From: an uncultured virus (IMG/VR IMGVR_UViG_2651870323_000004)
Lineage: Duplodnaviria; Heunggongvirae; Uroviricota; Caudoviricetes
DNA length: 20,000 nt
Virus record (IMG/VR): IMGVR_UViG_2651870323_000004
Reading direction: 5' to 3' (one strand)
Part shown: positions 1-17,105 of the stretch, in pieces
Numbering within the stretch: the first letter of the stretch is position 1
Layout of the letters: each line of letters starts with the position of its first letter
Program-made: the position numbers and the translations under genes
The notes under the pieces: model-generated
Told to the model about the DNA's origin: nothing
What the model saw: only the letters and a program-made list of their open reading frames with translations
Database searches by the model: none

Positions 1-522
1 GAATGTGGAAACCGCAGTGGCCCATTCGCGCGTGGCGGATTGCTCTGTGGCCTGACCTTTGGGGGCTTGGCGCTGGGCCGATGCCGCCCTGAATTTTTCC
101 TGACCCTCCGGAGTGCTGGTGTCGATCCAGCCCTGAGTTCGCATGCACGCTCCGGTTAGCTCTGCTTCGCGCTGGCGGGCGGCTGACACGGCGTAGGCGT
201 TGGCGATATTCGCACCCATATTCGCACCCGTCGCATATCCAGAAGCCAAACCGCCGGACGGCGTGGTGTTTCCCTGGAACGTGCTGACGTTTCCATAGCT
301 CGAAACGGTGCCCGTGGTGTTGTATCCGGTCGGCGCCGGTGCGGGCATGTACGCCTGCAATTTGGGCATCGGCGTTCGTCCAGCAGCGTAGCTTTCGCAC
401 TCGGCCAGCGCCATCGTCGCGCCGTCGTGGCCTTCGCCCGCTCGCGCCGGGTGCTGCCATTTCGCAGTGCTTGCGCAGCCTGACAGCACCGCCAGAACCA
501 TTGCCGAAATCGCGTAGCGCAT
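1..522 (-). CDS. Putative lipoprotein (prophage accessory gene), 3' end runs off the window
   Basis: Hand translation from ATG at 522: MRYAISAMVLAVLSGCASTAKWQHP..., open to base 1. Hydrophobic leader ending in a lipobox LSGC, with purine-rich GGGGAAG upstream. Not in the ORF track, presumably because there is no stop in the window. Confidence 0.8.
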   Translation of the reverse strand, partial: MRYAISAMVLAVLSGCASTAKWQHPARAGEGHDGATMALAECESYAAGRTPMPKLQAYMPAPAPTGYNTTGTVSSYGNVSTFQGNTTPSGGLASGYATGANMGANIANAYAVSAARQREAELTGACMRTQGWIDTSTPEGQEKFRAASAQRQAPKGQATEQSATREWATAVSTF

Positions 523-628
523 CTTGCTTCCCCCTGAGTTTTCGTGCGCGGGAACTGTATCAGACCCCTATCGACGGGCTGCGTGCCAAGCCTGCCAGCC
601 TTCCAGGGTTCACTTCAGAGGTGTGTCT

Positions 629-3600
629 ATGTCCCAGGATTTGCTCGCGATGGCGCGAGGTGATGGCGATGCTGCGGCCGGCGGCGGCTCCGACCTTTTC
701 GAGATGGCCGGCTTCAGGCCCCAGCCCAAGAAGCCCGCAGAGCGCACCTGGGGCGAGGCAGCGACCGATACCGTGGTGCAGCTGGCCGAGGGCGTGAACA
801 ACATCGCCGGGGCTGTGCCCAACCTGTTCGCGCCGCAGTCCGGGGTTGCGTCCTTCTTCCGGGACAATGCCGACCACTGGCGCGGGGAGCAGAGCGAGGC
901 CCTGCGCCGCAAGGTCGCCGACGCGGACGCCCAGATCGCGCAGGCGAACCAGGATTCCATCGTGGACCAGGCCGTGGCCGCCGCGAAGGCCTACAGCAGC
1001 GATCCGGCGCTGGCGGCGCGGTTCGTCACCACCAACCTGCCCAGCATGCTCCCGGGCGTGGCCGCGGCCAAGGCGGCGCAGGTCGCGCGTCTCGCGGGCG
1101 GCGCCAGCGCGGCCGTCGCGGCGGGCACGGCCACCACGGCGGCGGGCGTGACCAATGCCGTGCTCAATGCTGGTGGAGCCCGGGGCGAGGCCTTCGAGGA
1201 CATCCGCGACGCGCTCGTGAAGAAGGGCCATAGCCGCGAGGAGGCGGAGCGCATGGCGCTTGAGCGCTCGCGCATTCCGGCCGCCGTTGGCGCGGCCACC
1301 GGCTTCCTGTCCGGGAAGATCGGGCTTGAGCACGCCGTGGTGGGCGGCGGCGGCGCCCGTGGCGGGCTGGCGGCCGGGGCGCGCTCGGTGGCGGCGGAGT
1401 TGCTGGGCGAGCAGGCGGAGGAGGTGCTGCCCCAGGTCGCGACGAACTACCAGGCCAGCGACATCGACCAGCGGCCGCTATCCCGGAACGTAGGCCGCAC
1501 AGCCGTGGAAACGGCCATCGGTTCGGCGCCGGGCGCGGGCGTGTCGGGCGCTATGACCGCGCTGCGCCGCGGTGATGCCGCCGCTGCGAAGACGGAAGAG
1601 GGCACGCCACCAGCAGAGGCGGGCACGCCTGCGGAAGACATGCTCCCCGACTCGCTGCCGGACCAGCCGGCGCGCCGCTCGGGCCCGGCGGCTGACGCTG
1701 CCGACACGGCCGCGGCTGTCACGCGGCTGGCGGAGCTGGAGGTCATCGACGGCAGCGTGGGCCTGAGCGAAGAGCAGAAGGTCGAACGGGCGGTGCTGGC
1801 CGAGCGCGTGGAGCGTGCCGCCGCGCGAGAGGAGGAGCTGGAGGCCATCGGCGAGACGCCCGAGGAAGCGGCCGGTGCTGCGGCACCGCGGCCCGAAGCT
1901 GCGCCCGCGGCGGAAGCAGCCCAGCCCGGAGATGCCAGCGCAGCGGGAGCTTCCCAGGATGGCAGCCAGCTGCAGCAGGAGCTGCGGGCTGTAGCCCAGC
2001 GATCGAGCGGCGACACGCGGCGCAACGCGGTGGAGCTGCTGGCCCGACTGGAGGGCGGCGGTATGCCGGCCCATGTGCAACGTTTCGTGGAGCGCGAGGC
2101 CGCCGAGCTGGTGGCCACTGCGCAGGCCGCGCCGGCCGAGGCTGCTGGTGCTGCGCCGGGCGCTGCTGCGGCTCCGACCGCCCCGGATCGGCTGACCCCA
2201 CAGGAACGCCAGGAATTCGAGCGCGCCTACCGCCGCCCGGTAGCCGACCCGCTGGGCGAGCTGCAGGACCGCGTGCGCGCTGGCTCGGCCTACACCCAGG
2301 CCGGCGACGTGCAGCAGCTGCGCGATCAGTTGGAAGACGCCTGGCTCGAGCTGAACGTGGCGACCGAGACGCAACAGCCCGCGGCGGCGCCCGCGCAGAT
2401 CGACGGCGAGGCGATCCACCGCGTGGACGCCCAGCTGCGCACCCGGCGCATCCGCGACGCCCTGCAGAACCTGCTGGACGAGGACGTGGGCAACACGGTG
2501 CAGATCGTGGGCCGGCTCGATGGCGCGCTGGAGAAGATCGGCGAGCCGGGGCTGGATGACGGCGAGCGCCAGGCCGTGCGCCGCGTGGCGGACGCCTACT
2601 TCGGCTTTCGCGGGGCTCGCGAGCGCTCGCCCCTGCCCAAGCCCGTGGAGCGGGCCGAGGACTGGGGCGCGGACAACAGCAGCATGGAAGCGCTCATCCA
2701 GGAACGCGGGGCGCCGCGTGCGCGCAGCCGGGACCGGTCGGGGTATGCGCCTGCTGCCGAAAGTGCCCGATCGACTGCCGCCGCGCCGGCGGTGGACGCC
2801 TTCGATCCTGGCGCAGTTCGCGCCAAGACCTGGCCGCAGTTCGTGGCCGAACGCGGCGAGAACGTGGCGCGGCTGCGCCGGGGCTCGCCCGCGTGGGATC
2901 GCCTGCAGAACGAGTGGGCCGCCGTGAAGACGAAGCGCGCCGGCACGAACCCCGAGGGCACTGGCGCCGTGGGCGCGGCTACCCCCGAGATCCAGAACCG
3001 CGACCGGGCCCGACCCGCCAGCGTGGTGCAGATGCAGGGCATGGCCCAGAGCCCCGACTACATGCGCCTGGGTCCGTCGCGCAGCCCCGAGACGGGTGCG
3101 CCCATGGTGTTCGCCGTGGGCGACCAGGTGCACGCCGCGCACGCGATCGGCCGGGGCGACACGGCGGTGATGAGCGACGGCCAGCGCGTGCCGTTCCAGT
3201 ACGCGGTCATGGAAGCCGGCGACGTGCAGCCGTCCAACTTCGCCGACGGCGGGGTGAACCCGCTCTTCGACGCTGCACACCCGGGAACGGTGAAGGCGCT
3301 GAACAACGGGCGCACCGCGGGGCTGCGCGCGGCATACGAGCGCGGCACGGCCGACAGCTACCGGCAGGAGCTGATGGCCGACAGCGCCATGCACGGCATC
3401 GACCCGCAGGTGATCGCCGGCATGCGCGCGCCCATGCTGGTGCGCCTCTACTCGGAGCGCGACAACCAGGCCAACATGGGCGCCAAGAGCCAGAGCCAGG
3501 CCCTGGGGCTGTCGGCCGCCGAGCAGGCCGCCACGGACGCCGCGCTGCTGGATACCGGCGTGCTCGACGTGCTCGAGGCGGGCGACCTGGCCGGCGCCGC

Positions 3601-6600
3601 GAACCGCGATTTCGCACGGGCGTTCGTCGGCAAGCTGCAGGCCGAGGGCCAGGACGTGGCCGGCATGCTCGATGCCGGCGGCGCGCTCTCGCCCGCAGGC
3701 GTGGTGCGGCTGCAGGCTGCCCTCGTGCACAGGGCCTACAGCGATGGCGATCTGGTCGAATCCATGTTCGGCAGCACGGACAACGACATCCGCGCCATCG
3801 GCGAGGCACTGAAGGACGTGGCGGGCGAGTGGGCGAATCTGCGCCAGGCGGCTGCCGCTGGCGCCGTGAACCCACAGGTGGACGTGACGGGCAACCTGCT
3901 TCAGGCCATCCGGCTGGTGCAGAAGGCGCGGCGCGAGCGCGCATCCCTCTACGACGCGATCAACCAGGTGGACATGGTGACGGGCGACGTGCCCGACCCC
4001 ATGACCGTGGGCGTGCTGCGCATGCTCTATTCCGGCCAGTACCTGACGCGGGCCGTGGGCCGGGACCGGCTGGCCGACTCCCTGCGCGAATACATGGCCG
4101 CGGCCTTGGCGACGCGCGCGGGCGGTGATATGTTCGGCGAGCAGGTCGGCCCTGACGCCATCCTTTCCGCGTTGAGCGGCCAACCAACCACCCAGACCAC
4201 CAATGCAGCAAGCCCCCAACCTTCCGGACAATCCGCACCCGCAGCCCCGCAAGGCGAGCGAGGAGCCCCTGGCCGCGACCCTGCTGGCCGCGGTGCTGAT
4301 GAGCCAGGGCAGCAAGCACGGCGACCGGAACCAGATCGAGCAGGGCCGCGCCCTGATGAAGATGGCGGACGCGGCGAAGGGCAAGATGCCCAAGATCCCC
4401 GCGGACAGCCGGATGGGCAAGGCGATCGCGGAGCTGCAGAAGACGGCCGTGGCGCAGTAGCGCCAGACCTCGAACTTTCCAGCTACACCCCACGGGAAGT
4501 CACAGCGCGCGAGGACGCGCAGCAGGAGTCCGCCCAGGCCCGGGCGAAAGCCGACGCGAAGGCTGATGCCGACGCGCGCGCCGAGCGCGAGCGCCGCGAG
4601 GTATCCGCCCGGATGGAGGCCAGCGCCGAGAACTTCGAGCTGGGCGAGGATGCGGACGACGCCCTGAGCGGGCAGCGCCCCATGTTCAGCCGCGCAGCCG
4701 CGCCCGAGAGCGAGGCGTTCAAGAAGTGGTTCGGGGACAGCAAGGTGACGGAGAGCGGCAAGCCGGGTGGCCGCCCGCTCGTGATGTACCGCGGATCGCC
4801 CAACGAGAACGCGGCCCCGTCCCGGCCCGGGGCCCTTATCTTCCTGTCGCCAGACCCTGCGTTTGCCGAGCACTACGCGGCCGGCGGTGCCACCTATCCG
4901 CTGTACGTCAAGGCTGAACGGCCCTTCGACGCTTCCCGTGGGGAAGGCCTCGCGCTGTGGCGCAAGTACGCCGAGGAGACGGGCGCGGCATCGTGGGCCA
5001 CCTCGGGGACGGAGCGCGGAGCGCTGCCGGTCTGGCAGCAGGAGCCGGAACTGCGAAAGTGGCTGGACCGTGCTGGTGTTCAGTACGACGGGATCTGGTT
5101 TGCCGAGTCGAACGGTGGGGCATCGCTCGCGGTGCTGGCACAGGCTCAGGTCAAGTCGGCCACTGGAAACATCGGCACGTTCGACCCGTCGAACCCGGAC
5201 ATCCGCTTCAGCTTCGCCGGCAGGAACGCACGCAGCGCCGACCTGGGCGAGCTGGAGCGCGCCGAGGCCATGGCGCGCAGCGGCATGTCCAGCGCCGTCA
5301 TCCAGCAGGAAACCGGCTGGCACCGCGGCGTGGATGGCCGCTGGCGCTTCGAGATCAGCGATGACACCGCCGAATTCCGCCGGGCCGAGACGCGGCCGGA
5401 GGATCTCGTGGAGGTGGAGCGCCAGGTGCGCGAGGCGGCGACCGTCACCCAGGACGACGAACTGCACACCGCCCAGCTGGACGAAGGCGACGGCGTGCTG
5501 CGGGCCTACAGCACCACCCGAGAGGGGGCGCTGGCCAACCTTGTGGACCGCGTGGCGCGGGCCCGCTTCGGCGTGGAGTTCGACATCGCGAAGGTGAAGG
5601 ATGGACAGGTGGAGGCGCTGACCGACGTGCTGCGGCATCCGGCGCTGTTCGCCGCCTATCCGTTTCTGCGGGGGCTGAAGGTTTACTTCCGCAGGGGGCG
5701 AGACGCCCGCGAGTTCGGCTCCTACGACGAGACCCACCGGGCCGTCACGCTGAACGCGGATCGCGCTCCAGGAGAGGTGCTGTCCACGCTGCTGCATGAA
5801 CTCCAGCACGCGATCCAGTACCGTGAAGGCTTCGCGCTGGGCGGCAACATGGACGCCGACTTCACGAGCAGCGTGCGCAAGACCCTGCGCGAGATGGCCG
5901 AGGGCGAAGCGCGGGCGGTGGAGGCGTGGAAGGCGAAGCACCCGGACTTGATGGAGAACGCTGAGAAGGCGGCCGCCGTGGTGCGCGATGCCCTCATGTA
6001 CGAATCCATGGAGCGGCTGCTGTCCTACTCGGAGCGCGACAAGCCCAGCGGCGTGTTCCGGCTCATCCGCAACGAGATGCAGTGGATCTACAACACGACG
6101 CACTGGCTTGACCCGGTGGCGGTCGAGCTGCAGCGGCGGTTCTACGGGATGCCCAAGAGCGGCGCAAAGCGCAACGCCTACATCCGGGACATGGCCTTCG
6201 ATGCGCAGAAGTGGCTGCGAAGCACCATCGCGCCTGAGAACCTGGCAGCGTTCAAGGCCGACGAGCGCACGATGAAAGGGATGATCGGCGCGCTGCGCCG
6301 GCACGCCGACAAGGCGCGCGCCGCGCTGGAGCCCCTGCGAGAGCAGGAGGGCCGGGCCCGGGTAGCCGAGGCCCTGGAACGGAAGTTCGAGTTCGGATCG
6401 CCCTACGACATCTACCGCTCCCTCGCCGGTGAGGTAGAAGCGCGCACCACGCAGGCACGGCAGGGGCTCACGGAGGCAGAACGCCGTGCACGGCCCGTGC
6501 AGGCCGACATGGACGTGTCGCCGGCCGAGGCCATCGTGGTGGTGGGCGGCCACGAAATGCGCCTGCCGGACGTGCAGCAGGATCGCGGCGCGCCCGGGCC

Positions 6601-9600
6601 GGCCGATGACTTCGACGTGGACGCGTTCCTGCGCACGATGCAGGAGGCCCCGGCCGTGCCCGACGAGGCGAAGGCCCAGGCCGTGGCCCGCACGGAATCC
6701 GCCGCGGCTGCGATCCGCTCCGCGTGGGCGAACGGCCCCGAGGTGGTCGTGGCGTTCGACATGGCCGACCCGAAGGTGCCGCAGCAGGTGCGCGATGCCG
6801 ACCTGAGCCAGCGCAGCCGCGGCGCCGGGGGCTCGCCGGAGGGGTTCTACTTCGGCGGGAAGGTGTACCTGCTGGCCGAGCAGTTGCCGCGCGACCAAGA
6901 CGTGGCCCGCGTGCTCATGCATGAGGCGCTAGGCCACCACGGGCTCGCCGGGGTGTTCGGCTCGGGGCTCGATGCGGTGCTGCAGCAGCTCGTCCAGGCG
7001 CGGCCCGCCGAGGTGCGACGCAAGGCGGCGGAGTACGGTCTGGACTACGGCGACCGGGCCCAGCGGATGCAGGCGGCCGAGGAGGTGCTGGCCGAGATGG
7101 CGCAGGCCCGTCCGGAGCTGGGCTTCGTGCAGCGCGCGGTGGCCGCCGTGCGCAGCTGGGCGCGGGCGCACATCCCGGGCTTCGCCGACTTGCGGATGAC
7201 GGACGCCGAGATCGTCCGGGACTTCATCCTGCCGGCCCGGGGCTGGGTCGAGCGCGGGCGCCAGGCAGACGCAGCGCCGGCAGCCGCTGGCGGCGCGCCC
7301 GCCCTGGCCTTCAGCCTGCCAGCTGACGCGCTGGCCCAGGCCCGGGCGAAGTGGGCCGGGCTGGTCGATCAGTTCGTCCGTGGCGGGCTGGACGAAACGA
7401 AGACCTACGAGGTGCTGCCATCGTCCACGGCGGTGATGAAGATGTTGGGGCTGCCGGATCTGCCCGCGCACGCCGGTGTGCACGCCATGGACGCGCTCTA
7501 CAACCATGGCGTGAAGCCGTCGCAGATGAAGCAGATCCTGGACGAGCTGGCGAACCCGCGCATGGTCATGGTTTGGAACAAGGGCAGCCGCGGCGACGCG
7601 AGCCTGAATTTCGTCACGTCGATGAGCAACCCGCAGGGTCAGCCGTTCGTGATCGCCATCAAGCCCAACCGGGGCTCGGTGAAGGGGCGCTTCCACTGGG
7701 TGGCCACCGTCACGGAGAAGCAGCCGCGCGCGATCCTGGACATGGTGAGGGAAGGGGGGGCAATGTACGCTGGCGAGGGTGCCATCGCGGGAATCTCCGA
7801 GGCGGAGATGCGGGAAGCGTTGCGCTTCGCCAAAGAAAAACGAGGCAAGGAAGCCAGAGGACTGATGCAAGCAATTGGCACCAGTTATAGCTTACCGAAC
7901 CTCGTCCAGCGCGTATTGTACGCAAAGGATCTGGAAGCGTTCAAGGGGGAGCAGGCGGGCCCGGCAATGTTCAGCCGTGCGCCGGCCGGTGCCGCACAGG
8001 CAGCGCAGCCGGCGCAGGGGCTGCTGGCCCGCCTGCAGGACCGCGTGCGCCAGCTGACCAGCCCCGAGGCGGTGGACAGCTGGCTCTACAACTGGCAGGA
8101 CAAGTTCATCGACCTGAAGCGCATCCAGGACCAGATCAAGGCTCTGAACGGCACCGTCAGCGAGACGAACGACGCCTACCGCGGCGAGGAGCTGTACCAC
8201 AAGCGCGTGGCGAAGCGCACGGCCAACTTCCTGCGCGACGAGGTGCGGCCGCTGCTGGCCGCCATGAACGACGCGAAGGTGGGCATGGAGGAATTCGAGC
8301 GCTTCCTGCACGCGCGGCACGCTCCGGAGGCGAACCGCGTGCTGGCCGAGCGCAACCCGAGTAAGCAGGAGCTGGACCAGAAGCGCGCCGACGCCGCCAA
8401 GACCGTGGCGGACCTGCGCCGGCAGTTGCAGCACGCCCGGGCGTCCGGCTCGGTCATCAGCGGCATCCAGCGTTCGCTGGGGCTCGCCATGGCCGAGGCT
8501 GACCGCTGGAACAGCGCCGAAGCGTTCAAGGGCACGGAGGAGGACCGCCTGTCCCTGTCCGGCATGAGCGACGCCGAGGCCAAGAACGTCATGGGGGGCT
8601 ACAGCCCGGAGCAGCGCAAGGTGATGGACGCCTTGGCCACCCGGGTGGATCGGATGAACAACATCACGCTGCAGACGCTCGAGCAGTACGGCCTGATGGA
8701 TCGCCTGTCGATCGAGGCCTGGCGCAAGACCTACCAGCACTACGTCCCGCTGCACCGCGACGAGGCCCGGCCGGACAGCAAGGCTCATCCGATCGGGCAG
8801 GGCTTTTCGACGAAGGGCGACGCATCGAAGCGGCGCACCGGCTCCAACGAGAAGGTGACGAACATCCTGAGCCACCTGGTGATGCAGCGCGAGGCGGCGC
8901 TGACCCGCGGCGAGAAGAACAACGTGATGAAGCGCCTCTACGTGCTCGCGGCGCAGAACCCCGACGAGAGCCTGTGGTCCCTGGAGCTGCCCAAGAAAAA
9001 GGCCATCGACCCGGATACGGGGCTGGTGCGCACCATGCCGGACATCGGGGCGCGCCTGCGCGACAACGTGCTGACGCTGCGCATCGGGGGCAAGGACAAG
9101 CACATCATCTTCAACGAGCGCAACGAGCGGGCGGCCCGCCTGGCGCTCGCCATGAAGAACCTGGACGCCACGGAACTGGACCGCTTTACCCGCACGATGG
9201 GGCACCTCACGCGATGGTTCGCGGCGGTAAACACCCAGTACAACCCGATTTTCGGCGTGCTTAACCTGGCGCGCGACGTGCAGGGTTCGCTGCTGCAGCT
9301 GTCGTCCACCCCGTTGGCGGGCCGGCAGCGCGAGGTGTTCAAGAACATCCGCAGCAACATGCTTGACATCTACCGGGATCTCCGGCGAGAGCGCCGCGAA
9401 AGTGGGGCGGGGCAGGGGCCGTGGGCCCGGCTCTGGGAGCAGCTGCAGCTGGACGGCGGCACTACTGGCTATCGCGACCTCTACACCAAGCCCGAGGACC
9501 GCGCGGCGGCCCTGCGCAAGGCGCTCGAGCGGCAGGGCGAGGGTGGCGCGAAGGCCATGGTGCGCGGCGTGGGGGAGTGGCTGTCCGACTTCAATGAGAC

Positions 9601-10834
9601 GCTGGAGGCCTCCACGCGCCTGGCGACTTACAAGGCTGCGCTGGACGCCGGCCAGTCGCGCGAGGCCGCGGCCAGCCTTGCCAAGAACATCACGGTGAAC
9701 TTCAACCGGAAAGGGCGGAACACGTCCGTGGTGGGCAGCTACTACGCGTTCCTGAACGCCGCCATCCAGGGCAACGTGCGCATGCTGGAAACCCTGGCCG
9801 GGCCCGCCGGGCGGAAGGTCATGGCCGGCGGGGTCGCCCTGGGCATGCTGTCGGGGCTGGCGGGCGCGCTCATCATGGGCGGCGGCGGAGCCGACGACGA
9901 GTGGAAGAAGATCCCCGACTTCGTGAAGGAGCGCAGCATCATCATCCCGCTGTCGCGTCAGGACTACGTGGCGATCCCCATGCCGCTGGGGTTCCACGTC
10001 TTCCCGAACATCGGCCGCAAGCTGGTGGAGTTCGGCATGCATGACGATCCGACGAAGAGCCGCGCCGGTCACCTGGCGGACATGGCCATGATCGCCCTGA
10101 ACGCCTATAACCCGCTCGGCGGGGCCGACAACATCATGCAGATGCTGGCGCCCACGCCCTTCGATCCGGTGGTGGCGCTGATGGAGAACAAGGACTGGAC
10201 CGGCCGGCAGATCTACAAGGAGCAGCGCAGCGGGCTCGATCCGAAGCCCGGGCACGCCATGGGCAAGGATTCGGTGACGCCTCCCGCGCGGTGGGTGGCC
10301 CGGCTCATCAACGATGCCACCGGCGGCAACGAATGGCAGCCCGGGAAGTGGAGCCCCAACCCGGACGCGCTGGAGTACCTGTTCGGGCAGTTCACCGGAG
10401 GCGTGGGCCGCGAGCTGACCAAGGCCGGCAACATGGTGACGGCCGCCGTGACGGGCGAGGAACTGGCGCCGCATCAGATCACCCTGGCGGGGCGGTTTTA
10501 CGGCAACACCCGCGGCGTGAACGGCCAGAGCACGTCCTACTACGAGAACCTGAAGCGGGTGAACACCAGCATGGCCGAGGCCAGGGGGCGCGTGGCGAGA
10601 GGTGAGGAGGCCGAGGCCGTGCTGCTGGACGTGCCGCTGGCCCGCGTGGACGGGGCGGCCAGCGCGCTGGATAAGCGCGTGTCCGACCTGGTGAAGATGC
10701 GGCGGCAGATCCAGGCCGGCAGCGACCCGAACAAGCGCGAGCTCGTGAAGGAGGTGAATGCCGAAATCGAGCGCAGCATGTACCTGCTCAACAAGGCCGT
10801 GGAGGATGTGCTGGCCGAGCAACGCGGCCGGTGA
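629..10834 (+). CDS. Giant phage polyvalent protein (~3401 aa; LPD38 family, probably virion-injected)
   Basis: Uninterrupted ORF with high GC3. Start placed at ATG 629 after GAGGTG. Recognised motifs: ddrB-like ParB (QNRDR, QYAVMEA, NNGRTAGLRAAY; ~2984-3450); ART-PolyVal-like (FKKWFGDSKV..PLVMYRG..YDG..QVKSATGNIGTFDPSNPDIRFS; ~4715-5212); LPD23 (ETGWHRGVDGRWRFEISDD; from ~5213); zincin HELQH (5795) with distal GEVEAR (6428); second zincin HEALGH (6920); MuF-C-like (MLGLPDLP..HGV..ELANP; ~7400-7770); LPD38 (IPDFVKERSIIIP..IPMPLG..NKDWTGRQI..LFGQFTGG; ~9890-10430). Confidence 0.88.
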   Translation: MSQDLLAMARGDGDAAAGGGSDLFEMAGFRPQPKKPAERTWGEAATDTVVQLAEGVNNIAGAVPNLFAPQSGVASFFRDNADHWRGEQSEALRRKVADADAQIAQANQDSIVDQAVAAAKAYSSDPALAARFVTTNLPSMLPGVAAAKAAQVARLAGGASAAVAAGTATTAAGVTNAVLNAGGARGEAFEDIRDALVKKGHSREEAERMALERSRIPAAVGAATGFLSGKIGLEHAVVGGGGARGGLAAGARSVAAELLGEQAEEVLPQVATNYQASDIDQRPLSRNVGRTAVETAIGSAPGAGVSGAMTALRRGDAAAAKTEEGTPPAEAGTPAEDMLPDSLPDQPARRSGPAADAADTAAAVTRLAELEVIDGSVGLSEEQKVERAVLAERVERAAAREEELEAIGETPEEAAGAAAPRPEAAPAAEAAQPGDASAAGASQDGSQLQQELRAVAQRSSGDTRRNAVELLARLEGGGMPAHVQRFVEREAAELVATAQAAPAEAAGAAPGAAAAPTAPDRLTPQERQEFERAYRRPVADPLGELQDRVRAGSAYTQAGDVQQLRDQLEDAWLELNVATETQQPAAAPAQIDGEAIHRVDAQLRTRRIRDALQNLLDEDVGNTVQIVGRLDGALEKIGEPGLDDGERQAVRRVADAYFGFRGARERSPLPKPVERAEDWGADNSSMEALIQERGAPRARSRDRSGYAPAAESARSTAAAPAVDAFDPGAVRAKTWPQFVAERGENVARLRRGSPAWDRLQNEWAAVKTKRAGTNPEGTGAVGAATPEIQNRDRARPASVVQMQGMAQSPDYMRLGPSRSPETGAPMVFAVGDQVHAAHAIGRGDTAVMSDGQRVPFQYAVMEAGDVQPSNFADGGVNPLFDAAHPGTVKALNNGRTAGLRAAYERGTADSYRQELMADSAMHGIDPQVIAGMRAPMLVRLYSERDNQANMGAKSQSQALGLSAAEQAATDAALLDTGVLDVLEAGDLAGAANRDFARAFVGKLQAEGQDVAGMLDAGGALSPAGVVRLQAALVHRAYSDGDLVESMFGSTDNDIRAIGEALKDVAGEWANLRQAAAAGAVNPQVDVTGNLLQAIRLVQKARRERASLYDAINQVDMVTGDVPDPMTVGVLRMLYSGQYLTRAVGRDRLADSLREYMAAALATRAGGDMFGEQVGPDAILSALSGQPTTQTTNAASPQPSGQSAPAAPQGERGAPGRDPAGRGADEPGQQARRPEPDRAGPRPDEDGGRGEGQDAQDPRGQPDGQGDRGAAEDGRGAVAPDLELSSYTPREVTAREDAQQESAQARAKADAKADADARAERERREVSARMEASAENFELGEDADDALSGQRPMFSRAAAPESEAFKKWFGDSKVTESGKPGGRPLVMYRGSPNENAAPSRPGALIFLSPDPAFAEHYAAGGATYPLYVKAERPFDASRGEGLALWRKYAEETGAASWATSGTERGALPVWQQEPELRKWLDRAGVQYDGIWFAESNGGASLAVLAQAQVKSATGNIGTFDPSNPDIRFSFAGRNARSADLGELERAEAMARSGMSSAVIQQETGWHRGVDGRWRFEISDDTAEFRRAETRPEDLVEVERQVREAATVTQDDELHTAQLDEGDGVLRAYSTTREGALANLVDRVARARFGVEFDIAKVKDGQVEALTDVLRHPALFAAYPFLRGLKVYFRRGRDAREFGSYDETHRAVTLNADRAPGEVLSTLLHELQHAIQYREGFALGGNMDADFTSSVRKTLREMAEGEARAVEAWKAKHPDLMENAEKAAAVVRDALMYESMERLLSYSERDKPSGVFRLIRNEMQWIYNTTHWLDPVAVELQRRFYGMPKSGAKRNAYIRDMAFDAQKWLRSTIAPENLAAFKADERTMKGMIGALRRHADKARAALEPLREQEGRARVAEALERKFEFGSPYDIYRSLAGEVEARTTQARQGLTEAERRARPVQADMDVSPAEAIVVVGGHEMRLPDVQQDRGAPGPADDFDVDAFLRTMQEAPAVPDEAKAQAVARTESAAAAIRSAWANGPEVVVAFDMADPKVPQQVRDADLSQRSRGAGGSPEGFYFGGKVYLLAEQLPRDQDVARVLMHEALGHHGLAGVFGSGLDAVLQQLVQARPAEVRRKAAEYGLDYGDRAQRMQAAEEVLAEMAQARPELGFVQRAVAAVRSWARAHIPGFADLRMTDAEIVRDFILPARGWVERGRQADAAPAAAGGAPALAFSLPADALAQARAKWAGLVDQFVRGGLDETKTYEVLPSSTAVMKMLGLPDLPAHAGVHAMDALYNHGVKPSQMKQILDELANPRMVMVWNKGSRGDASLNFVTSMSNPQGQPFVIAIKPNRGSVKGRFHWVATVTEKQPRAILDMVREGGAMYAGEGAIAGISEAEMREALRFAKEKRGKEARGLMQAIGTSYSLPNLVQRVLYAKDLEAFKGEQAGPAMFSRAPAGAAQAAQPAQGLLARLQDRVRQLTSPEAVDSWLYNWQDKFIDLKRIQDQIKALNGTVSETNDAYRGEELYHKRVAKRTANFLRDEVRPLLAAMNDAKVGMEEFERFLHARHAPEANRVLAERNPSKQELDQKRADAAKTVADLRRQLQHARASGSVISGIQRSLGLAMAEADRWNSAEAFKGTEEDRLSLSGMSDAEAKNVMGGYSPEQRKVMDALATRVDRMNNITLQTLEQYGLMDRLSIEAWRKTYQHYVPLHRDEARPDSKAHPIGQGFSTKGDASKRRTGSNEKVTNILSHLVMQREAALTRGEKNNVMKRLYVLAAQNPDESLWSLELPKKKAIDPDTGLVRTMPDIGARLRDNVLTLRIGGKDKHIIFNERNERAARLALAMKNLDATELDRFTRTMGHLTRWFAAVNTQYNPIFGVLNLARDVQGSLLQLSSTPLAGRQREVFKNIRSNMLDIYRDLRRERRESGAGQGPWARLWEQLQLDGGTTGYRDLYTKPEDRAAALRKALERQGEGGAKAMVRGVGEWLSDFNETLEASTRLATYKAALDAGQSREAAASLAKNITVNFNRKGRNTSVVGSYYAFLNAAIQGNVRMLETLAGPAGRKVMAGGVALGMLSGLAGALIMGGGGADDEWKKIPDFVKERSIIIPLSRQDYVAIPMPLGFHVFPNIGRKLVEFGMHDDPTKSRAGHLADMAMIALNAYNPLGGADNIMQMLAPTPFDPVVALMENKDWTGRQIYKEQRSGLDPKPGHAMGKDSVTPPARWVARLINDATGGNEWQPGKWSPNPDALEYLFGQFTGGVGRELTKAGNMVTAAVTGEELAPHQITLAGRFYGNTRGVNGQSTSYYENLKRVNTSMAEARGRVARGEEAEAVLLDVPLARVDGAASALDKRVSDLVKMRRQIQAGSDPNKRELVKEVNAEIERSMYLLNKAVEDVLAEQRGR
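4203..4460 (+). CDS. Overprinted 85-aa ORF nested in the +1 frame of the giant gene; function unknown
   Basis: By hand count, 82 of 85 codons end in G/C, while over half of the host-frame codons in the same stretch end in A/T. The product looks helical (PLAATLLAAVLMSQG..ALMKMADAAK). Confidence 0.7.
   Translation: MQQAPNLPDNPHPQPRKASEEPLAATLLAAVLMSQGSKHGDRNQIEQGRALMKMADAAKGKMPKIPADSRMGKAIAELQKTAVAQ
7832..7908 (-). ncRNA. Candidate antisense small RNA: long imperfect hairpin ending in a U-tract
   Basis: Minus-strand pairings ACGAGG/CCUCGU, GGuAAGCUA/UGGCUUCC and ACUGGUGC/GCAUCAGU, then UUUUCUUU. Two pairs are G-U on the minus strand but A-C mismatches on the plus strand. A promoter-like element lies directly upstream. 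Confidence 0.5.
7915..7944 (-). promoter_or_regulatory. Sigma70-like antisense promoter inside the giant gene
   Basis: TTGAAC (7944-7939), 18-nt spacer, TACAAT (7920-7915), in a locally AT-rich patch of a high-GC gene. Confidence 0.5.
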
Positions 10835-10837
10835 TGG

Positions 10838-10862
10838 AGCGGCAGGCATAGTGCCTGCCGCT
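10838..10862. terminator. 11-bp perfect stem-loop right after the giant gene
   Basis: AGCGGCAGGCA-tag-TGCCTGCCGCT. No U-tract, so terminator function is uncertain. Confidence 0.45.
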
Positions 10863-10894
10863 GAGCTATCCTTCTGGGCACAACAGGAGGGCAC

Positions 10895-11140
10895 ATGCCG
10901 AAGATCAAGGTGTACACCGCGATGCGCGCCGACGGCGCCATGCTGGAGTTTTCTCATCCCGTCGAAGAGGAATGGACCGTCGAAGACGTGGCCCAGCGGC
11001 TTATTGAGCAAGCGCAGCGGTCGCAAGACCTGACTCCGGACGGACGACGCGGCGCAACCCGTGTCGAGCGGCTTGCAGAGTTAGGCTTCGCCATCACCAG
11101 TGTGGAGGAGGTGGAAGCCCCCGCCGAGGATGCCGAATGA
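10895..11140 (+). CDS. Hypothetical acidic protein, 81 aa
   Basis: Strong RBS AGGAGG, plausible composition, ATGA overlap with the next gene. Confidence 0.75.
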   Translation: MPKIKVYTAMRADGAMLEFSHPVEEEWTVEDVAQRLIEQAQRSQDLTPDGRRGATRVERLAELGFAITSVEEVEAPAEDAE

Positions 11141-11397
11141 TCCCATCCCTCAATATCGTCAAGGCTGGCTCCGGCATCTACGACGTGCACATTGAGGACG
11201 GCGGCACAGAAGTGGACGAGTTCACGGCAACGACCATCGCAGGCGCCATCCGGGAAGCGGCCGCCCGTGGGTACGGCGCCCGGGGCTTCCACATTTGGTA
11301 CGGCGCCATCTGCATCGGCACCACCACCCTGACCGCCATGCGGCACGATGCCGAAACGCTGGCGCTGAAGCTGCTGAGCGTGGCATCACAGTTCTGA
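11137..11397 (+). CDS. Hypothetical protein, 86 aa
   Basis: Translationally coupled by ATGA; globular-looking sequence with high GC3. Confidence 0.7.
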   Translation: MIPSLNIVKAGSGIYDVHIEDGGTEVDEFTATTIAGAIREAAARGYGARGFHIWYGAICIGTTTLTAMRHDAETLALKLLSVASQF

Positions 11398-11404
11398 GGG
11401 CGGC

Positions 11405-11800
11405 ATGAAGAATTCCGGAATGTTCGCCCAGGCTCTCCAGCATGCCTTCTGGATGCAGTCCGTCCGCGCACATGAGAACCCGAAACAGGTGGCACGCTCA
11501 CGCGCTGTGTTCGTTGACCTCTGGAAGAGCGCAGGATGGGTTGCGTTGATGGCTGCTCTGGGATGGTGCGCACTGTTCGCTGCAGGCAAGGCGCATCCAT
11601 CATTTCCCCTGGACGTGGGAAAACTGTGCTCCGTCATCGGAATATGGCTCGCCGGGTGGGGGACATGGCTCGCGATCCAAGAGCGGATGGGCTCCTGGGA
11701 TGGCTCCCTTCCAGATGAAATAGCCCGAGATGGGCTGTTCCGCCTTCTATTCATCCCGGGCATCTTCTTCTCGGTGGTCGGGGCTGGCTGGTGGGGTTGA
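11405..11800 (+). CDS. Hypothetical membrane protein, 131 aa (~3 TM segments)
   Basis: GAGG upstream of ATG; three hydrophobic Trp-rich stretches; lower GC3 than neighbouring genes. Confidence 0.65.
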   Translation: MKNSGMFAQALQHAFWMQSVRAHENPKQVARSRAVFVDLWKSAGWVALMAALGWCALFAAGKAHPSFPLDVGKLCSVIGIWLAGWGTWLAIQERMGSWDGSLPDEIARDGLFRLLFIPGIFFSVVGAGWWG

Positions 11801-11833
11801 TGATGCTGGATGTTTGTCCAGTATCATCCATTC

Positions 11834-12112
11834 ATGACCATCGACCAGATTGCAATCGCCTTGCTCGGCGCTGCGGCCGCGTTCCTGTCGCAGGCCAGCA
11901 CGGAAGCGGCCCGCCGGTGGGCTTGCATCTTCGGCATCGTGGGACAGCCGTTCTGGTTCTGGGCGTCCTGGCACGCCGACCAGTGGGGCGTCTTCGCGGT
12001 GTCGGTCTTGTACGCCCTGGCGTGGGTCCGGGGCTTCTGGGTGTACTGGGTAGCCCCCCGCCTGCGGGCGGGGTCGGGGCTGGGAGCCATCCCTAAATCT
12101 GCCCCAAAATGA
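11834..12112 (+). CDS. Small phage membrane protein, 92 aa (~3 TM segments)
   Basis: MTIDQIAIALLGAAAAFLSQ..RWACIFGIVGQPFWFW..QWGVFAVSVLYALAWVRG; start moved to ATG 11834. Confidence 0.75.
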   Translation: MTIDQIAIALLGAAAAFLSQASTEAARRWACIFGIVGQPFWFWASWHADQWGVFAVSVLYALAWVRGFWVYWVAPRLRAGSGLGAIPKSAPK

Positions 12113-12121
12113 GCGAATTAC

Positions 12122-12172
12122 AGCGTACCCAGGCGTAGCCCTATCCCTCTAGGAGCTACGCTGCGGTACGCT
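12122..12172. repeat. Long imperfect inverted repeat next to the att site
   Basis: AGCGTACC-cag-GCGTAGC-CCT ... AGG-a-GCTACGC-tgc-GGTACGCT. Confidence 0.7.
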
Positions 12173-12503
12173 AGGATTCGGGGTCGCTAGGGTTCGAATC
12201 CCTCCGTTTCCGCCAATCAGGAAAAGCTGCCAGCATGGCCTCAAGGCCATCGGCGGCTTTTTTTTCGTCCTCATGTTCGGACATGGCTAAGTCCTCCGCC
12301 ATGGCCGCGACGAACGCGTGCGCTGGGTCTTCACCCAGGATTGCGCGGAGCTTGCCCCGGACACGCCAGTTCGCAGGCCTTTTCCCCTGTTTCATTTGGA
12401 TCAATGTCGGCCCCGTGGTGTCGAGCATGGCCGCCAATTTGCGTTGGCTGCCGGCTGCAGTTGATGCTCGCTCGATCAGGTCGGAGAGTTCTTCGAGGGT
12501 CAT
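12171..12503 (-). CDS. Inovirus repressor (XRE/Cro-like HTH), 110 aa
   Basis: GSQRKLAAMLDTTGPTLIQMKQGKRP resembles an HTH; gene is divergent from the replication operon; start moved to ATG 12503; C-terminal WRKRRDSNP is the antisense reading of the tRNA fragment. Confidence 0.8.
   Translation of the reverse strand: MTLEELSDLIERASTAAGSQRKLAAMLDTTGPTLIQMKQGKRPANWRVRGKLRAILGEDPAHAFVAAMAEDLAMSEHEDEKKAADGLEAMLAAFPDWRKRRDSNPSDPES
12189..12215 (+). repeat. att site: 27-bp 3' fragment of a tRNA (probably tRNA-Ser); not an intact tRNA
   Basis: AGGGTTCGAATCCCTCCGTTTCCGCCA is a T-arm, 3' acceptor strand, discriminator G and CCA. No matching 5' acceptor strand (GGAAACG), D arm or anticodon arm upstream. 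Confidence 0.85.
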
Positions 12504-12508
12504 GGTGG

Positions 12509-12571
12509 TTGCAAATTGCAATAGGTAAGGTTACATTCCGGTTGCAATCTGCATCCGGTAGCGGATTGCTA
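12509..12571. promoter_or_regulatory. Rightward sigma70 promoter with three putative repressor operators
   Basis: TTGCAA (12509-14), 17-nt spacer, TACATT (12532-37). 13-bp pseudo-palindromes TTGCAAATTGCAA (12509), TTGCAATCTGCAT (12542) and TAGCGGATTGCTA (12559). Confidence 0.7.
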
Positions 12572-12587
12572 ATTTTAAGCAGCCGCC

Positions 12588-13127: not shown

Positions 13128-13594
13128 GGCTCGTCGCCAAGCACCACCAGGTTGGCTACCAGACCCCGGGAGAGCGGCCAGGCTGCCGCAACTGCGCGCA
13201 CTTCGAGGTGACGCGCCATGACTCGCCCATCATCGCCCCGCGCACGGCCTGCACGCTGCACCAGCTCGAAGTGACCAGCGGCGGCATCTGCAATAGCCAC
13301 AAGCTGCAGCGCAAGCCCGGCGAGGCCCAGCTCGCGTTCCTGGCCCGTCAGCGCGATCTGCTGGAGAGCCAGGCGCAGGACCTGGAGCCGCGCCTGGTCG
13401 ATGACCGCGTGTTCCCCGCTGTGGGGGAGATGTACGAAGGCAAGCCGATGACGGTTGCCAAGCATCGCCGCCTGATGGTGGAGCAGTTGATCACCAACGA
13501 GGAAGCCTCTGGCGATCCTGATCTGCTGCGCGCCGCAGCGTTCCGCCGCCGCGCCAATGGCATGCCTCCCCGTCCTGGGGATCGTCGCGCATGA
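13124..13594 (+). CDS. Hypothetical Cys/His-rich protein, 156 aa (possible Zn binding)
   Basis: CRNCAHF..CTLH..CNSH; ATGA-coupled at both ends. Confidence 0.75.
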   Translation: MRLVAKHHQVGYQTPGERPGCRNCAHFEVTRHDSPIIAPRTACTLHQLEVTSGGICNSHKLQRKPGEAQLAFLARQRDLLESQAQDLEPRLVDDRVFPAVGEMYEGKPMTVAKHRRLMVEQLITNEEASGDPDLLRAAAFRRRANGMPPRPGDRRA

Positions 13595-13803
13595 GCACCG
13601 CACCCATGGCCGGCTCGGCCCTTATCCACATGCCCAAGAGCTACGAGATTGCATGCCCGCCGGGCATGCTGGCCCACGGCCACCGCATCAAGCGCTTCAC
13701 GTCCCTGCAGGCCTTCGAAGGCTACGTCGCACAGCTGCGCAAGAGCGGCTGCACTGTCCGCTGGGACACGCCTTTTACCGCCACCGTGGAGGCCACCCGA
13801 TGA
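13591..13803 (+). CDS. Hypothetical protein, 70 aa
   Basis: ATGA-coupled to the upstream gene and to rep; high GC3. Confidence 0.7.
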   Translation: MSTAPMAGSALIHMPKSYEIACPPGMLAHGHRIKRFTSLQAFEGYVAQLRKSGCTVRWDTPFTATVEATR

Positions 13804-14825
13804 GCGGCCGCATGGCGGCGCGCGGAGGGGCCCCGCGCAGCGGGGAGGCGCTGCGCGCCGCCCCGTCCCCTAGTGCTGTAACACTAGGGGAAACCTCCAA
13901 GCAGCGCGCGAAGGTCGATTGGTTGACCGCGACGTGGAAGCCCGAGCCCGACGAACACGTCGTGGCGACGGTTCTGGACCTGCTCCATGGCTTCGGGCTC
14001 AAGGTGGAGGCCGAGGCTGGCCGTGGCCATTTCGGTTTCGCCGAGGGAGCCCGCCTGTACGTCCGCCTGGACGATGGCGCACGCCACCAGGTGGCGCTCC
14101 TCGACTGGGGCGGTGAGCGCATGCGTGGCCGTGCGCGCCTGGACCTCTCCGGCACTGCCTGCAGCCGCATCAGCGACTGGCAGGGCATGCAGGAGTGGCT
14201 GGGCCGCCAGTGGGAAACGACGATCACGCGCGTTGACTTGGCCGTCGATTGCCTCAATGGCGAGTTCACCGTCGAGGACGCCCGGGCCTGGATGGAGGCC
14301 GGCGAGTTCACCGCCGGCGAGGGCCGCCCGCCGCGCCACAGCACACCCGGCGACTGGCTGTCACCCGAACCGTTCTACGGCCGCACGCTGGAGATTGGCC
14401 GCCGCGAGAACGGAAAGATGCTCCGCGCCTACGAAAAGGGCCTCCAGCTCGCACCAGGTAGCGGCGACAAGTGGACGCGCTTCGAGGTCGAAATCCGCAA
14501 CAAGGATCGCGACGTGCCGCTCGACGTGCTCACCCGCTGTGATGAGTACTTCGTCGGCGCCTACGAGTGCCTGCAGCGCCTGCTGCCTGCCGCTGGCGAG
14601 CGCATCGCCACCCACCAGAAGGAAGGCGAGCTCAGCCTCGAAACGATGGTCCACCACGCCAGCGTCGGCTACGGAAAGCTCGTGCACGTCATGCGCGGCC
14701 ACGTGCCCGCTGACCAAATCCTCGACTTATTTGACCGGCCAGGCGTCCCAAGACGACTGGAAAAGGCCACCCTGGCCGGATTCATCGCGGCGTCGTCTGT
14801 CGCATCACAGGAGAAAAGGCCATGA
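13800..14825 (+). CDS. Rolling-circle replication initiator, Rep_trans family
   Basis: Motifs VDWL, ITRVDLAVD, GRTLEIG..KMLRAYEKG, WTRFEVE; start ATG 13800 after GGAGG. Confidence 0.92.
   Translation: MSGRMAARGGAPRSGEALRAAPSPSAVTLGETSKQRAKVDWLTATWKPEPDEHVVATVLDLLHGFGLKVEAEAGRGHFGFAEGARLYVRLDDGARHQVALLDWGGERMRGRARLDLSGTACSRISDWQGMQEWLGRQWETTITRVDLAVDCLNGEFTVEDARAWMEAGEFTAGEGRPPRHSTPGDWLSPEPFYGRTLEIGRRENGKMLRAYEKGLQLAPGSGDKWTRFEVEIRNKDRDVPLDVLTRCDEYFVGAYECLQRLLPAAGERIATHQKEGELSLETMVHHASVGYGKLVHVMRGHVPADQILDLFDRPGVPRRLEKATLAGFIAASSVASQEKRP
13867..13890 (+). other. Putative plus-strand origin (nick-site) hairpin within the 5' end of rep
   Basis: Perfect stem CCCCTAGTG-ctgtaa-CACTAGGGG, preceded by a second GC hairpin (~13814-13862). 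Rep_trans origins commonly lie at or in the 5' part of rep. Confidence 0.6.
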
Positions 14826-15130
14826 AAGCACATGTGATCGGTATCGAGATTTCCGAGGGCGTCAGCAAGAAGACAGGGCAGCCCTATGCCATCGGCAAGC
14901 TGTTCTGCGCGCTCCCCATCGTGGGGAAGGGGGCACGCGGCCTCATGGGCAGTGAGTACCAATGCGAACCTGTGGTGCTGCGCAAGCTCGATGGCATCGA
15001 GCTCCCCGTCGTCTGCGAGCTCGAAATGCAGGACGTTATGCGCTACGGCCAACGCCGCCAGGAGATCGTGTCCGTGGTGCCCGTCAAGGCTGCTGCGCAG
15101 CAGCCTGCAGCCGCTCCCCGTGCCGCCTGA
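14822..15130 (+). CDS. ssDNA-binding protein (pV-like), 102 aa
   Basis: Directly follows rep (ATGA); GVSKKTGQPYAI beta-hairpin motif and size are typical of inovirus SSBs. Confidence 0.85.
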   Translation: MKAHVIGIEISEGVSKKTGQPYAIGKLFCALPIVGKGARGLMGSEYQCEPVVLRKLDGIELPVVCELEMQDVMRYGQRRQEIVSVVPVKAAAQQPAAAPRAA

Positions 15131-15344: not shown

Positions 15345-15346
15345 CC

Positions 15347-15559: not shown

Positions 15560-15644
15560 CCAATGCAACTATCAGCCTCGCGTGCGGGGTTGATGGGTGC
15601 AAACCGGATTCCCCGGAACACCGATTTTTTTCTGGAGTTTGAAA

Positions 15645-15779
15645 ATGGACGCAATCTTTGCAGCAGTGGATTTCAAGACCGTCGCCGCGGCCGTGGGTGT
15701 CATCGGTGTCGCCGTCATCGGCATCCACATGGCCTTCAAGGGCATCGACCTGGGCAAGCGTGGCGTGAAAAAGGCCTGA
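15645..15779 (+). CDS. Major coat protein (pVIII-like), 44 aa, no signal peptide
   Basis: RBS GGAG; MDAIFAAVDFKTVAAAVGVIGVAVIGIHMAFKGIDLGKRGVKKA has an acidic N-terminus, TM helix and basic C-terminus. Confidence 0.88.
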   Translation: MDAIFAAVDFKTVAAAVGVIGVAVIGIHMAFKGIDLGKRGVKKA

Positions 15780-15789: not shown

Positions 15790-15888
15790 ATGCTGATAGG
15801 GGCGCTGCTCGCTCTCTTCCTGGCCCTGGTGGCCGTGATTGGGGCGGTCAGCGCCCTTGTTTTTGCTCTGCAGGTGCGCAATGCTTAG
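15790..15888 (+). CDS. Putative minor coat protein, 32 aa
   Basis: MLIGALLALFLALVAVIGAVSALVFALQVRNA, a single TM segment between pVIII and pIII; hand-translated, below the ORF track cutoff. Confidence 0.7.
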   Translation: MLIGALLALFLALVAVIGAVSALVFALQVRNA

Positions 15889-16730
15889 ATCGTCAAAGTT
15901 CTTGTCTCTCCTGGTCGTGCTCCTGGCCGGTGTTGGCACGTCAAACGCCGGTGTGCGGTACCAATATGGCGACGCCTGGTACCCCAGTGCGACCGCTGCT
16001 TGTCAGGCCCACATAACGAAGAACGCATCTTCGAATCCGGGCGTTTCGTCGTCGGTCTCTGCGGTGCAGGAGTTCGCTACCACTGCGGTTTGCACTATCT
16101 CCTCCTCCAGCGCAAATGGATCGTGGACCGATCGTTTGACCGTCGGCCGCGAAGAGACCGCGTGCACAGCAGGTGAGTCAACTGGCGAGCTCGACTACCC
16201 CGGTTCTCGCGGCTCGTTCAGGACTTGTGTCCAGGGCTGTCTGGCGGACATGAGCGCCGTTACTCCCGTGCTTGAGTGCTCAGGCACTGGCACCAGCGCG
16301 TGCACCTACAAGACCCGCATGTCCGGCAAGCTGACCGGCGCATCGTGCAGCTCCGCATCTGGCGATCCGCCCACCACCAACCCGCCACCATGCCCGTCCG
16401 GCATGTCCGGTGGCTACGTCAACGGCGTTGAGGCCTGCGTCCCCAACTCGGGGAGCGGTGGCAGCACTGGCGGTGGCACTGGCGGCGGTACCGGGTCCGG
16501 CGACGGCACAGGCGGCGGCACGGGCGGCGGCACGGGCGGCGGCACTGGCGGCGGCACTGGCGGTGGTACTGGTTCCGGTGACGGGTCAGGCGGTGGCACT
16601 GGTGGTAGTACAGGTGGCGGCACCGGGTCCGGTGATGGCACTGGGGGCGGTACTGGCGGCGGTACTGGCGGCGGTACTGGCGGCGGTACTGGCGGCGGCA
16701 CTGGCGGAGGCACTGGCGGAGGCACTGGCG
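15881..16730 (+). CDS. Adsorption protein (pIII-like), reliable N-terminal part only
   Basis: Signal peptide MLRSSKFLSLLVVLLAGVGTSNA, Cys-rich domain, Pro-rich turn, then a GGGT/GSGDG linker. Sequence degrades after ~16730 and no C-terminal anchor is present. Confidence 0.85.
16453..16730 (+). repeat. 12-bp tandem repeats encoding the Gly-Gly-Gly-Thr linker
   Basis: GGCGGCGGYACN-like units interrupted three times by GSGDG. Confidence 0.9.
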
Positions 16731-16904
16731 GGGGGGCGGGGGGGGGGGCGGGCGGGGGGGCGGGCGCGGGGGGCGGGGGGGCGGCTGGGCCCCCCCCCCC
16801 ATGGGGGGGGAGGTGCTGGGGGGGGGGCGCGTCGCTCCCGGGCGGGCCTGGGGGGCCCGCCTCCCACCGGCCGCCCCCTGTTCGGGGCGGCGCGCCTGGG
16901 GCCT
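16731..16904. other. Corrupted G/C homopolymer tract; probable sequencing or assembly junction
   Basis: Long G and C runs with A/T nearly lost, between two truncated convergent genes. Confidence 0.8.
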
Positions 16905-17105
16905 GCCTGCGGCGGCGGTGGCGGGCGTCCAGTTGGCATCGCGCCAGCACAGTTCGTTCGTGCCGTTCTTCCACACCAGCTCGCCGGTGCCGTTTTGCCA
17001 GTTGTCGATCACCTTGCCGCCGTCAGCGGCCTTGACTTGGGCACCAGCCGAGGTAGCCAGCACGGCAGAGGCCAACAACATCGCCACTTTGTTCAGTTTC
17101 TTCAT
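16905..17105 (-). CDS. ompA: Outer membrane protein A, first 67 codons only
   Basis: MKKLNKVAMLLASAVLATSAGAQ..DNWQNGTGELVWKNGTNELCWRDANWTPATAAAG; RBS AGGAG; divergent from gyrA as in Burkholderiales. The C-terminal domain is missing. Confidence 0.92.

Follow-up and report, generated by a model that had tools for sequence, protein, structure and literature searches.

A putative inovirus repressor gene that spans its attachment site, with a predicted change from a long nonpolar to a short polar tail on integration

Several phages carry their attachment site inside a regulator gene. In mycobacteriophage BPs, integration-dependent immunity is based on an attP located within the repressor reading frame; the integrated form of the protein is shorter, with a host-derived stop near the att site (PMC3694055, PMC4557955). 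Among filamentous phages, ORF13 of the Ralstonia inovirus RSS0 goes from 156 to 130 aa when the phage integrates, and the two forms have been proposed to differ in function (PMC3816273). ORF12 of the Xanthomonas inovirus XacF1 is a regulator gene with attP inside it, at a dif site used with XerCD (PMC5666396, PMC3816273, PMC4471427). ORF15 of the inovirus Rs551 is stated to be unchanged by integration (PMC4471427). The end of a repressor can also be set by a neighbour. In the tandem prophages prophiT36-2a/2b of Mycobacterium abscessus T36, one repressor gene takes its 3' end from the inner junction, and in the view of the authors only harmless frame combinations persist (PMC9934374). Both an attP inside a phage regulator gene (BPs, RSS0, XacF1) and a neighbour-set repressor end (T36) are thus already known. 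These descriptions, and the comparisons made from them below, follow the accessible portions of the cited papers.

The locus described here lies in a stretch of 20,000 nucleotides from an uncultured virus (IMG/VR record IMGVR_UViG_2651870323_000004), which we refer to as the window. Its features are collected in Table 1. The reading frame of the putative inovirus repressor is on the minus strand and crosses the 3' end of a tRNA-Ser(GCT), itself on the plus strand, without a stop, so that the protein ends in ...AFPD-WRKRRDSNP-SDPES. A TTG at 12521 is an alternative start and would give a frame of 116 aa (12171-12521, minus strand). An initial annotation, made from the letters alone, had noted the missing stop before the tRNA fragment and the tail WRKRRDSNP followed by SDPES; both are confirmed by translation, by genome G001, by the provirus record G002 and by contigs of sequencing runs X1 and X6. 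Positions 12189-12216 are an exact 28-bp match to the 3' end of tRNA-Ser(GCT) in G001, for which the chance of a given 28-mer occurring in a 5-Mb genome is, as a rough estimate, about 1e-9. ARAGORN and Rfam called no tRNA in the window because the fragment is too short. An assembly artefact at the junction of the repressor with the tailed prophage was considered and is ruled out: G002 matches window positions 1-16686 with zero mismatches, and the X1 and X6 contigs span the junction with no other letters, X6 being a possible source of this DNA. RNA contigs of run X1 also cover the region, a matter of coverage that is not informative on expression. The contigs of run X18 leave 12088-12171 uncovered, which, for contigs, is uninformative.

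Table 1. Features of the 20,000-nucleotide window
Feature	Position	Strand	Remarks
Right part of tailed prophage of about 57 kb	1..12188		Small accessory ORFs and polyvalent protein
Polyvalent phage protein, 3436 aa	524-10834		Domains ddrB-ParB, ART-PolyVal, LPD23, DUF6782, MuF_C, LPD38
Putative inovirus repressor (XRE-like HTH)	12171..12503	-	110 aa from ATG at 12503; PHROG 638
SDPES tail, five codons and stop	12171..12188	-	From the tailed prophage arm
Tailed prophage right attachment site	12189..12216	+	28 bp of tRNA-Ser 3' end
Inovirus att core, 13 bp	12203..12215	+	Last 13 bases of tRNA-Ser(GCT); minus strand encodes W-R-K-R
Two imperfect palindromes, candidate operators	12507..12560		33 bp apart, directly upstream of repressor start
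Rolling-circle replication initiator (Rep_trans), inovirus	13800..14825	+	
Single-strand DNA binding protein (RstB-like)	14822..15130	+	
Major coat protein	15597..15779	+	
Putative pIII-like adsorption protein, Gly-rich repeat	15839..16686	+	Label from position and repeat
Probable assembly join	16687..16905		G-rich low-complexity sequence, inovirus to host genes

The last five codons of the repressor come from the neighbouring prophage, as the initial annotation had said. G001 carries the same right end (96% over window positions 11805-12216) within its own tailed prophage, which is bounded by a 41-bp direct repeat. Since that prophage lies between the tRNA and the other copy of the repeat, 12171-12188 is the right arm of the tailed prophage. 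G001 has no match to the window repressor.

We label the gene a probable repressor from its match to the XRE-like HTH family PHROG 638 (E 1e-6) and from its position. A Pfam search of the frame gave no hit, and the PDB profile match is a weak one, to Aca7 (E 0.004). A structural model of P0002, a 94% identical relative, contains the HTH helices, and its fold matches to XRE/HTH regulators all have E values above 0.1. The palindromes upstream of the start are candidate operators from their sequence and placement; a palindrome repeat with 33-34 bp spacing is also present in two related loci (L033 and L014). The promoter scan found no sigma-70 consensus site. A Shine-Dalgarno-like sequence is not evident before the repressor ATG (12501-12520), where the palindrome is directly upstream, and the message may be leaderless.

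The two elements share the tRNA end. The 13-bp inovirus core is nested inside the 28-bp match, and in the window the remaining 13 bp of the 41-bp repeat have been displaced by the inovirus; in the related locus L150, host flank follows the far inovirus core. The placement of att within the repressor gene, proposed in the initial annotation, holds for the window and for relatives, in which the core is duplicated over 13-15 bp at both prophage ends (e.g., L033, L037, L044, L150). In intact prophages, the far copy of the core sits just behind a convergent gene for a resolvase-family serine recombinase, which is truncated in G002 (PF00239, E 6e-41) and intact in relatives. We also considered that integration might alter the C-terminus of the recombinase. 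This was rejected, as its stop precedes the core by 2-53 nt in 28/28 cases. The recombinase C-termini are, by eye, basic or polar and varied (e.g., ...KRQRC, ...PDYRS), with no proteolysis tag like that of the BPs integrase.

The tRNA-Ser is occupied in other ways as well. Several loci have islands with integrase-like ORFs (by eye) between the inovirus and the tRNA-Ser (L018 8294-9577, L020 7407-8657, L146 10173-11714, L158 1545-2717), and therefore stacking at this tRNA is common. In L152, tailed-phage lysis genes lie behind the same SDPES junction. Upstream of the far att copy, L047 has 128 bp and L022 has 60 bp from the 3' end of a repressor gene, which points to tandem copies or what remains of them.

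Read through these junctions, the predicted proteins show that a long nonpolar tail gives way to a short polar one on integration. The initial annotation had foreseen up to three tails, and all are on record. The window protein (P0121) has the SDPES tail. P0122 has an identical 100-residue body and ends in RDSNPR, which we call the R tail. In run X17, a plant metagenome, the same inovirus is joined at 12189 to an intact tRNA, with no difference over 12189-14000; identity with the tRNA ends at this position on a codon boundary, and the tRNA side reads R-stop. P0002, identical in 94/100 residues, has a 27-residue hydrophobic tail of the free-form type. Reconstruction of attP succeeded only in part: G002 has a single core, with no second copy above 11 bp, but L150 retains both copies, and an in silico swap there gives the same 27-residue tail as in P0002. 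This tail is the antisense of the phage serine recombinase gene. The possibility that attP yields the same tail, or a stop within the shared core, is contradicted by L150 and P0002, since the free-form tail differs and is 27 residues long. The intact tRNA end was taken from G001 and X17, and P0002 and L150 served as stand-ins for the free-form tail because G002 is without the recombinase C-terminus. The prophage form is 106-110 aa long vs 127 aa for the free form, and the hydropathy of the last five residues is -2.0 with SDPES, -2.8 in the R form and +2.6 in the free form. The three tails also occur together in a second group of alleles (P0127, P0128/P0124, P0002). SDPES occurs with five repressor alleles (P0121, P0127, P0129, P0033, L152). 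Contigs of the runs contain neither a joint nor a free-circle junction for the inovirus, though rare forms are lost from contigs. Searching viral contigs for exact matches to the recombinase end or to the SDPES junction gave nothing, in a collection from which near records may be left out. The order of arrival of the two phages cannot be told, because both single-element states exist: the tailed prophage alone in G001 and the inovirus alone in X17.

The same layout is family-wide in Comamonadaceae inoviruses, a group whose hosts are plant- and water-dwelling bacteria. Searching found 416 homologues of the repressor, and among 401 genomes searched for the family, 8 carry it. The 13-bp core pattern falls inside the repressor frame in 61/68 distinct loci, and in 59 of them in the frame encoding W-R-x-R/L. 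Among the other seven, one stops before the core and six have no pattern match, although two of these six show the core by eye. Tails were classified for the best 120 of the 416: 75 are RDSNP(R), 30 are long, 11 are other short tails (five of them tRNA variants), 1 is SDPES and 3 stop at the core. By eye, 29/30 of the long tails in this best 120 of 416 are of the recombinase-antisense type. Free-type junctions are seen directly in six loci (L024, L047, L049, L062, L074, L153), plus P0002, and L062 holds both free-type and integrated-type forms. There are exceptions. L045 stops before the core, L043 and L059/L063 use another frame, L134 has a 6-residue tail, and the circular Dulem virus 61 ends at the core edge (WRRR-stop), so that its tail would not change.

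Twelve tails are written by a third element. They average 7.4 residues, and 11/12 are polar, with one of the twelve possibly a tRNA variant. The chance of such shortness is 0.0002-0.01 under a simple stop model, although many of these tails share an att arm, and all 6 for which the DNA was checked are below the local median length. It would seem that stacked lysogens last when the tail they borrow does no harm.

Codon patterns in the recombinase gene indicate that the free-form tail is under selection. The distance from the recombinase stop to the core is 2 modulo 3 in 25/28 cases, over spacings of 2-53 nt, which sets the repressor codon-to-codon on the antisense strand of the recombinase; the count covers 28 cases, and 43 further recombinase hits are without a core behind them, many because the record ends. 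For codon usage, we compared 26 recombinases at least 70% identical to that of L033. One Leu column uses TTA or CTA, which read TAA or TAG in antisense, in 17/26 genes vs 22/406 at other Leu columns. In the more divergent subset the counts are 12/20 vs 25/327 (p 2.5e-8; p-values here are overstated, the genes being related, with 5 label changes on the tree vs 7.6 when shuffled, and the column windows having been set after seeing the data). Four-fold sites are saturated (0.31-0.44), and four-fold identity in the overlap is 0.32. The two codons are about equally used at the Leu column (9 and 8) and neighbouring third positions vary, which is more in keeping with a stop codon than with a binding site. 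Antisense stops are found in 0/26 genes over columns 168-196, the last 29, where 7.6 codons would be expected, and in 26/26 genes over columns 143-167, where 7.7 genes would be expected and other 25-column windows have 5-11/26. Control recombinases without the tRNA core have an antisense stop in the last 28 codons in 7/17 cases.

The end of the tail has a character of its own. The last three residues have a mean hydropathy of 0.96 vs 0.02 inside the tails, and a charged residue occurs there in only 1/29 long tails. None of the 29 ends in Ala-Ala; Ser is the commonest last residue (14/29), and some end in LVA, LHA or xDA. The sequence of the tail is unconstrained; its length and nonpolar end are kept. 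The hydrophobicity is presumably in part a by-product of the antisense register. In the P0002 model the tail is helical over residues 97-117; the pLDDT falls from 70 to 42, with only the last nine residues below 50, so the modelled tail is not clearly unstructured.

The left part of the window belongs to the tailed prophage, whose full-length tyrosine integrase, portal, major head and tail-fibre genes are outside the window, in G002. A small membrane protein is encoded at its right end (11810-12112; weak NMN-transporter match, E 0.004), and a related sequence occurs near a tRNA-Arg in G001 (locus L004). Among named proteins, those of Paracidovorax and other Comamonadaceae are closest. The inovirus gene set is complete as to Rep, SSB, small coat protein and pI/Zot ATPase, counting genes only and with pI taken from G002. 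Past 16686, G002 continues with the Zot-family morphogenesis gene and then the serine recombinase. The window leaves the phage at about 16690 and lacks the rest of it; as G002 continues the phage there instead, the window assembly is probably chimeric at 16687-16905. There the pIII-like gene breaks off in the G-rich sequence and is joined to what we take, from the translations, to be the beginning of an ompA-like host gene, followed by a gyrA-like one. The join does not touch the repressor junction.

In G002, an insertion sequence that, from its Pfam domains, appears to be IS3-like interrupts the recombinase gene after about 157 codons. The recombinase C-terminus and the second att are absent from G002 and may lie beyond the record. 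Because the recombinase is cut and G002 has no second att, recombination between att sites can probably no longer set this inovirus copy free. Run X6 has a further insertion at window positions 13509-13511. The copy looks to be decaying and may be defective. G002 also holds a second inovirus (L027 1703-11894), inverted and head to head with the first, with its own regulator, Rep and recombinase. Its regulator is 33% identical, ends in KLRSL and has no tRNA core. Two identical 1310-bp insertion sequences, inverted, flank the recombinase of the second inovirus (G002:C1 9669-13201, in L027). One of the two also cuts the recombinase of the first, and the X6 insertion is alike. At the far end of G002, a segment of the tailed prophage is repeated at 79% identity (reverse strand 77207-78180 vs 25792-26752), which suggests a further prophage beyond the two inoviruses.

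We give a somewhat better than even chance to the reading that integration operates a stability switch on the repressor, with the third tail being neutral. The sequences show that the filamentous prophage integrates by its 13-bp core at the 3' end of tRNA-Ser, with the core in the last codons of the HTH regulator gene. In the free circle, or in tandem copies, the frame runs on along the antisense of the convergent recombinase and acquires a nonpolar-ended tail of some 27-57 residues. Beside an intact tRNA it gains RDSNPR or stops at once, and beside another element at the same tRNA it takes a short polar tail, here SDPES. On the proposed reading, the long tail would make the free-form repressor unstable or weak, so that the replication genes stay on; on integration the short tail would give a stable repressor, locking in lysogeny and immunity without an Ala-Ala tag. 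SDPES would be a by-product of two phages at one tRNA that behaves like a normal prophage tail, and stacked states would probably last only with a short borrowed tail. Nonpolar C-termini destabilise proteins and charged ones protect them. We propose that the long-tail form would be subject to proteolysis. The ssrA tag is a mostly nonpolar C-terminal degron (PMC9382460, PMC10850787). Against the switch count the lack of Ala-Ala ends, the unchanged tail of Dulem virus 61, four loci that leave the frame or stop early, the helical tail of the model and the weak matches behind the repressor label.

The swap might instead matter without proteolysis, by altering oligomerisation or the binding of a partner such as the recombinase, or through an overlap effect at the RNA level. 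The helical tail of the model and the lack of an ssrA-like end are compatible with this, as is the convergence of the repressor and recombinase transcripts, whose genes overlap by at least 27 codons only at attP. For RSS0 ORF13, the accessible part of the report by Yamada 2013 also proposes a functional difference rather than proteolysis (PMC3816273). However, an unconstrained tail sequence speaks against a specific interface, an RNA effect would need neither an open frame nor a conserved stop, and the nonpolar ends fit protease recognition. We consider this explanation rather unlikely.

Similarly improbable, in our estimate, is neutral compaction, in which the gene takes any stop that lies past the att site, the tail has no regulatory role and selection limits only the length of the run-on. 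In GC-rich genes, the antisense frame in codon-to-codon register is open by default, and the background of antisense stops here is 56/3193 codons. Dulem virus 61 and L045 manage without a tail swap, and tail sequences are unconstrained. L045 keeps the antisense stop codon though its repressor does not read through. Neutral compaction leaves unexplained, however, both the absence of stops from the last 29 columns (against the expectation and the 7/17 of the controls) and the frame kept in 25/28, an early stop being the cheapest way to limit a run-on.

The initial annotation had gone further and proposed that excision of one phage could change the stability of the other's repressor. In such cross-phage control, SDPES and R would differ in stability, and excision of the tailed prophage would change inovirus repression and output. 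A swap from SDPES to R on excision is geometrically certain, given the codon boundary at 12189, the tailed prophage has a full-length integrase, and stacking is seen with five repressor alleles, P0121 being on 23 contigs vs 5 for P0122, although these counts reflect sampling. Against this, SDPES and R are alike in being short and polar, other stacked elements contribute short tails of unrelated sequence, as by-products would, and the inovirus copy looks to be decaying and may be unable to excise; the proposal is not supported, and we hold it to be very doubtful. Equally remote is a broader neighbourhood read-out, in which an antisense-written degron marks free or tandem copies, stacked elements write their own tails, and induction of the tailed prophage retunes the inovirus repressor, coupling the two life cycles. 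The tail lent by the neighbour is better seen as a natural control than as a new mechanism: real but probably harmless.

If the stability switch is correct and the free-form tail lowers the level of repressor, then integration-dependent immunity has been reached by another route in a widespread group of Comamonadaceae inoviruses. That route would join a serine recombinase of the RSM type to a tRNA core and a recombinase-antisense tail kept open through selection at synonymous positions. For chronic filamentous phages, it would explain in a testable way what decides between replication and lysogeny, a point that has stayed a hypothesis for RSS0. The reading further predicts which elements are compatible at one tRNA site, and a weak repressor from tandem copies.

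Our literature search, whose coverage excluded most subscription journals and supplements, returned no description of this inovirus family or of an antisense-encoded repressor tail. The accessible parts of the RSS0 and XacF1 papers (PMC3816273, PMC5666396) mention neither antisense overlap nor tail selection, and that of PMC12715192 has nothing on att inside a repressor.

The likeness to BPs drawn in the initial annotation holds for the layout but not for the tag. Shared with BPs are attP inside the repressor frame, a shorter prophage form with its stop near the junction and a longer free form. BPs is a tailed phage with a tyrosine integrase co-oriented with the repressor; its repressor has an ssrA-like Ala-Ala tag, and its integrase is also C-terminally tagged. 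Here, an inovirus has a small serine recombinase that is convergent with the repressor and unaltered by integration, and the tail is antisense-encoded and without Ala-Ala. Because that tag is absent, we do not file the system as a member of the BPs type. RSS0 and XacF1 are also inoviruses with attP inside a regulator gene, but they use host XerCD at dif and have no recombinase of their own, whereas the present family has its own recombinase, a core at a tRNA end and no dif-like attP. The tandem prophages prophiT36-2a/2b are alike in being two prophages at one tRNA with a junction that sets the repressor end. Both of those are tailed and have ssrA-like tags, while here an inovirus and a tailed phage with unrelated integration chemistry have nested cores. 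The integration module is most like that of RSM1, RSM3 and Rs551 (RSM-type, Habenivirus), which likewise have a serine recombinase of the resolvase family and a 13-bp core identical to a tRNA-Ser 3' end (PMC3816273, PMC4471427). The recombinases are only about 49-54% identical, and the tRNA is Ser(UCG) in the RSM type and Ser(GCT) here. In Rs551, the repressor and recombinase genes point the same way and attP lies between them, 35 nt past the repressor stop; here the two genes are convergent and the core is inside the reading frame. What appears new is an antisense-encoded free-form tail, maintained by selection, on an RSM-type module.
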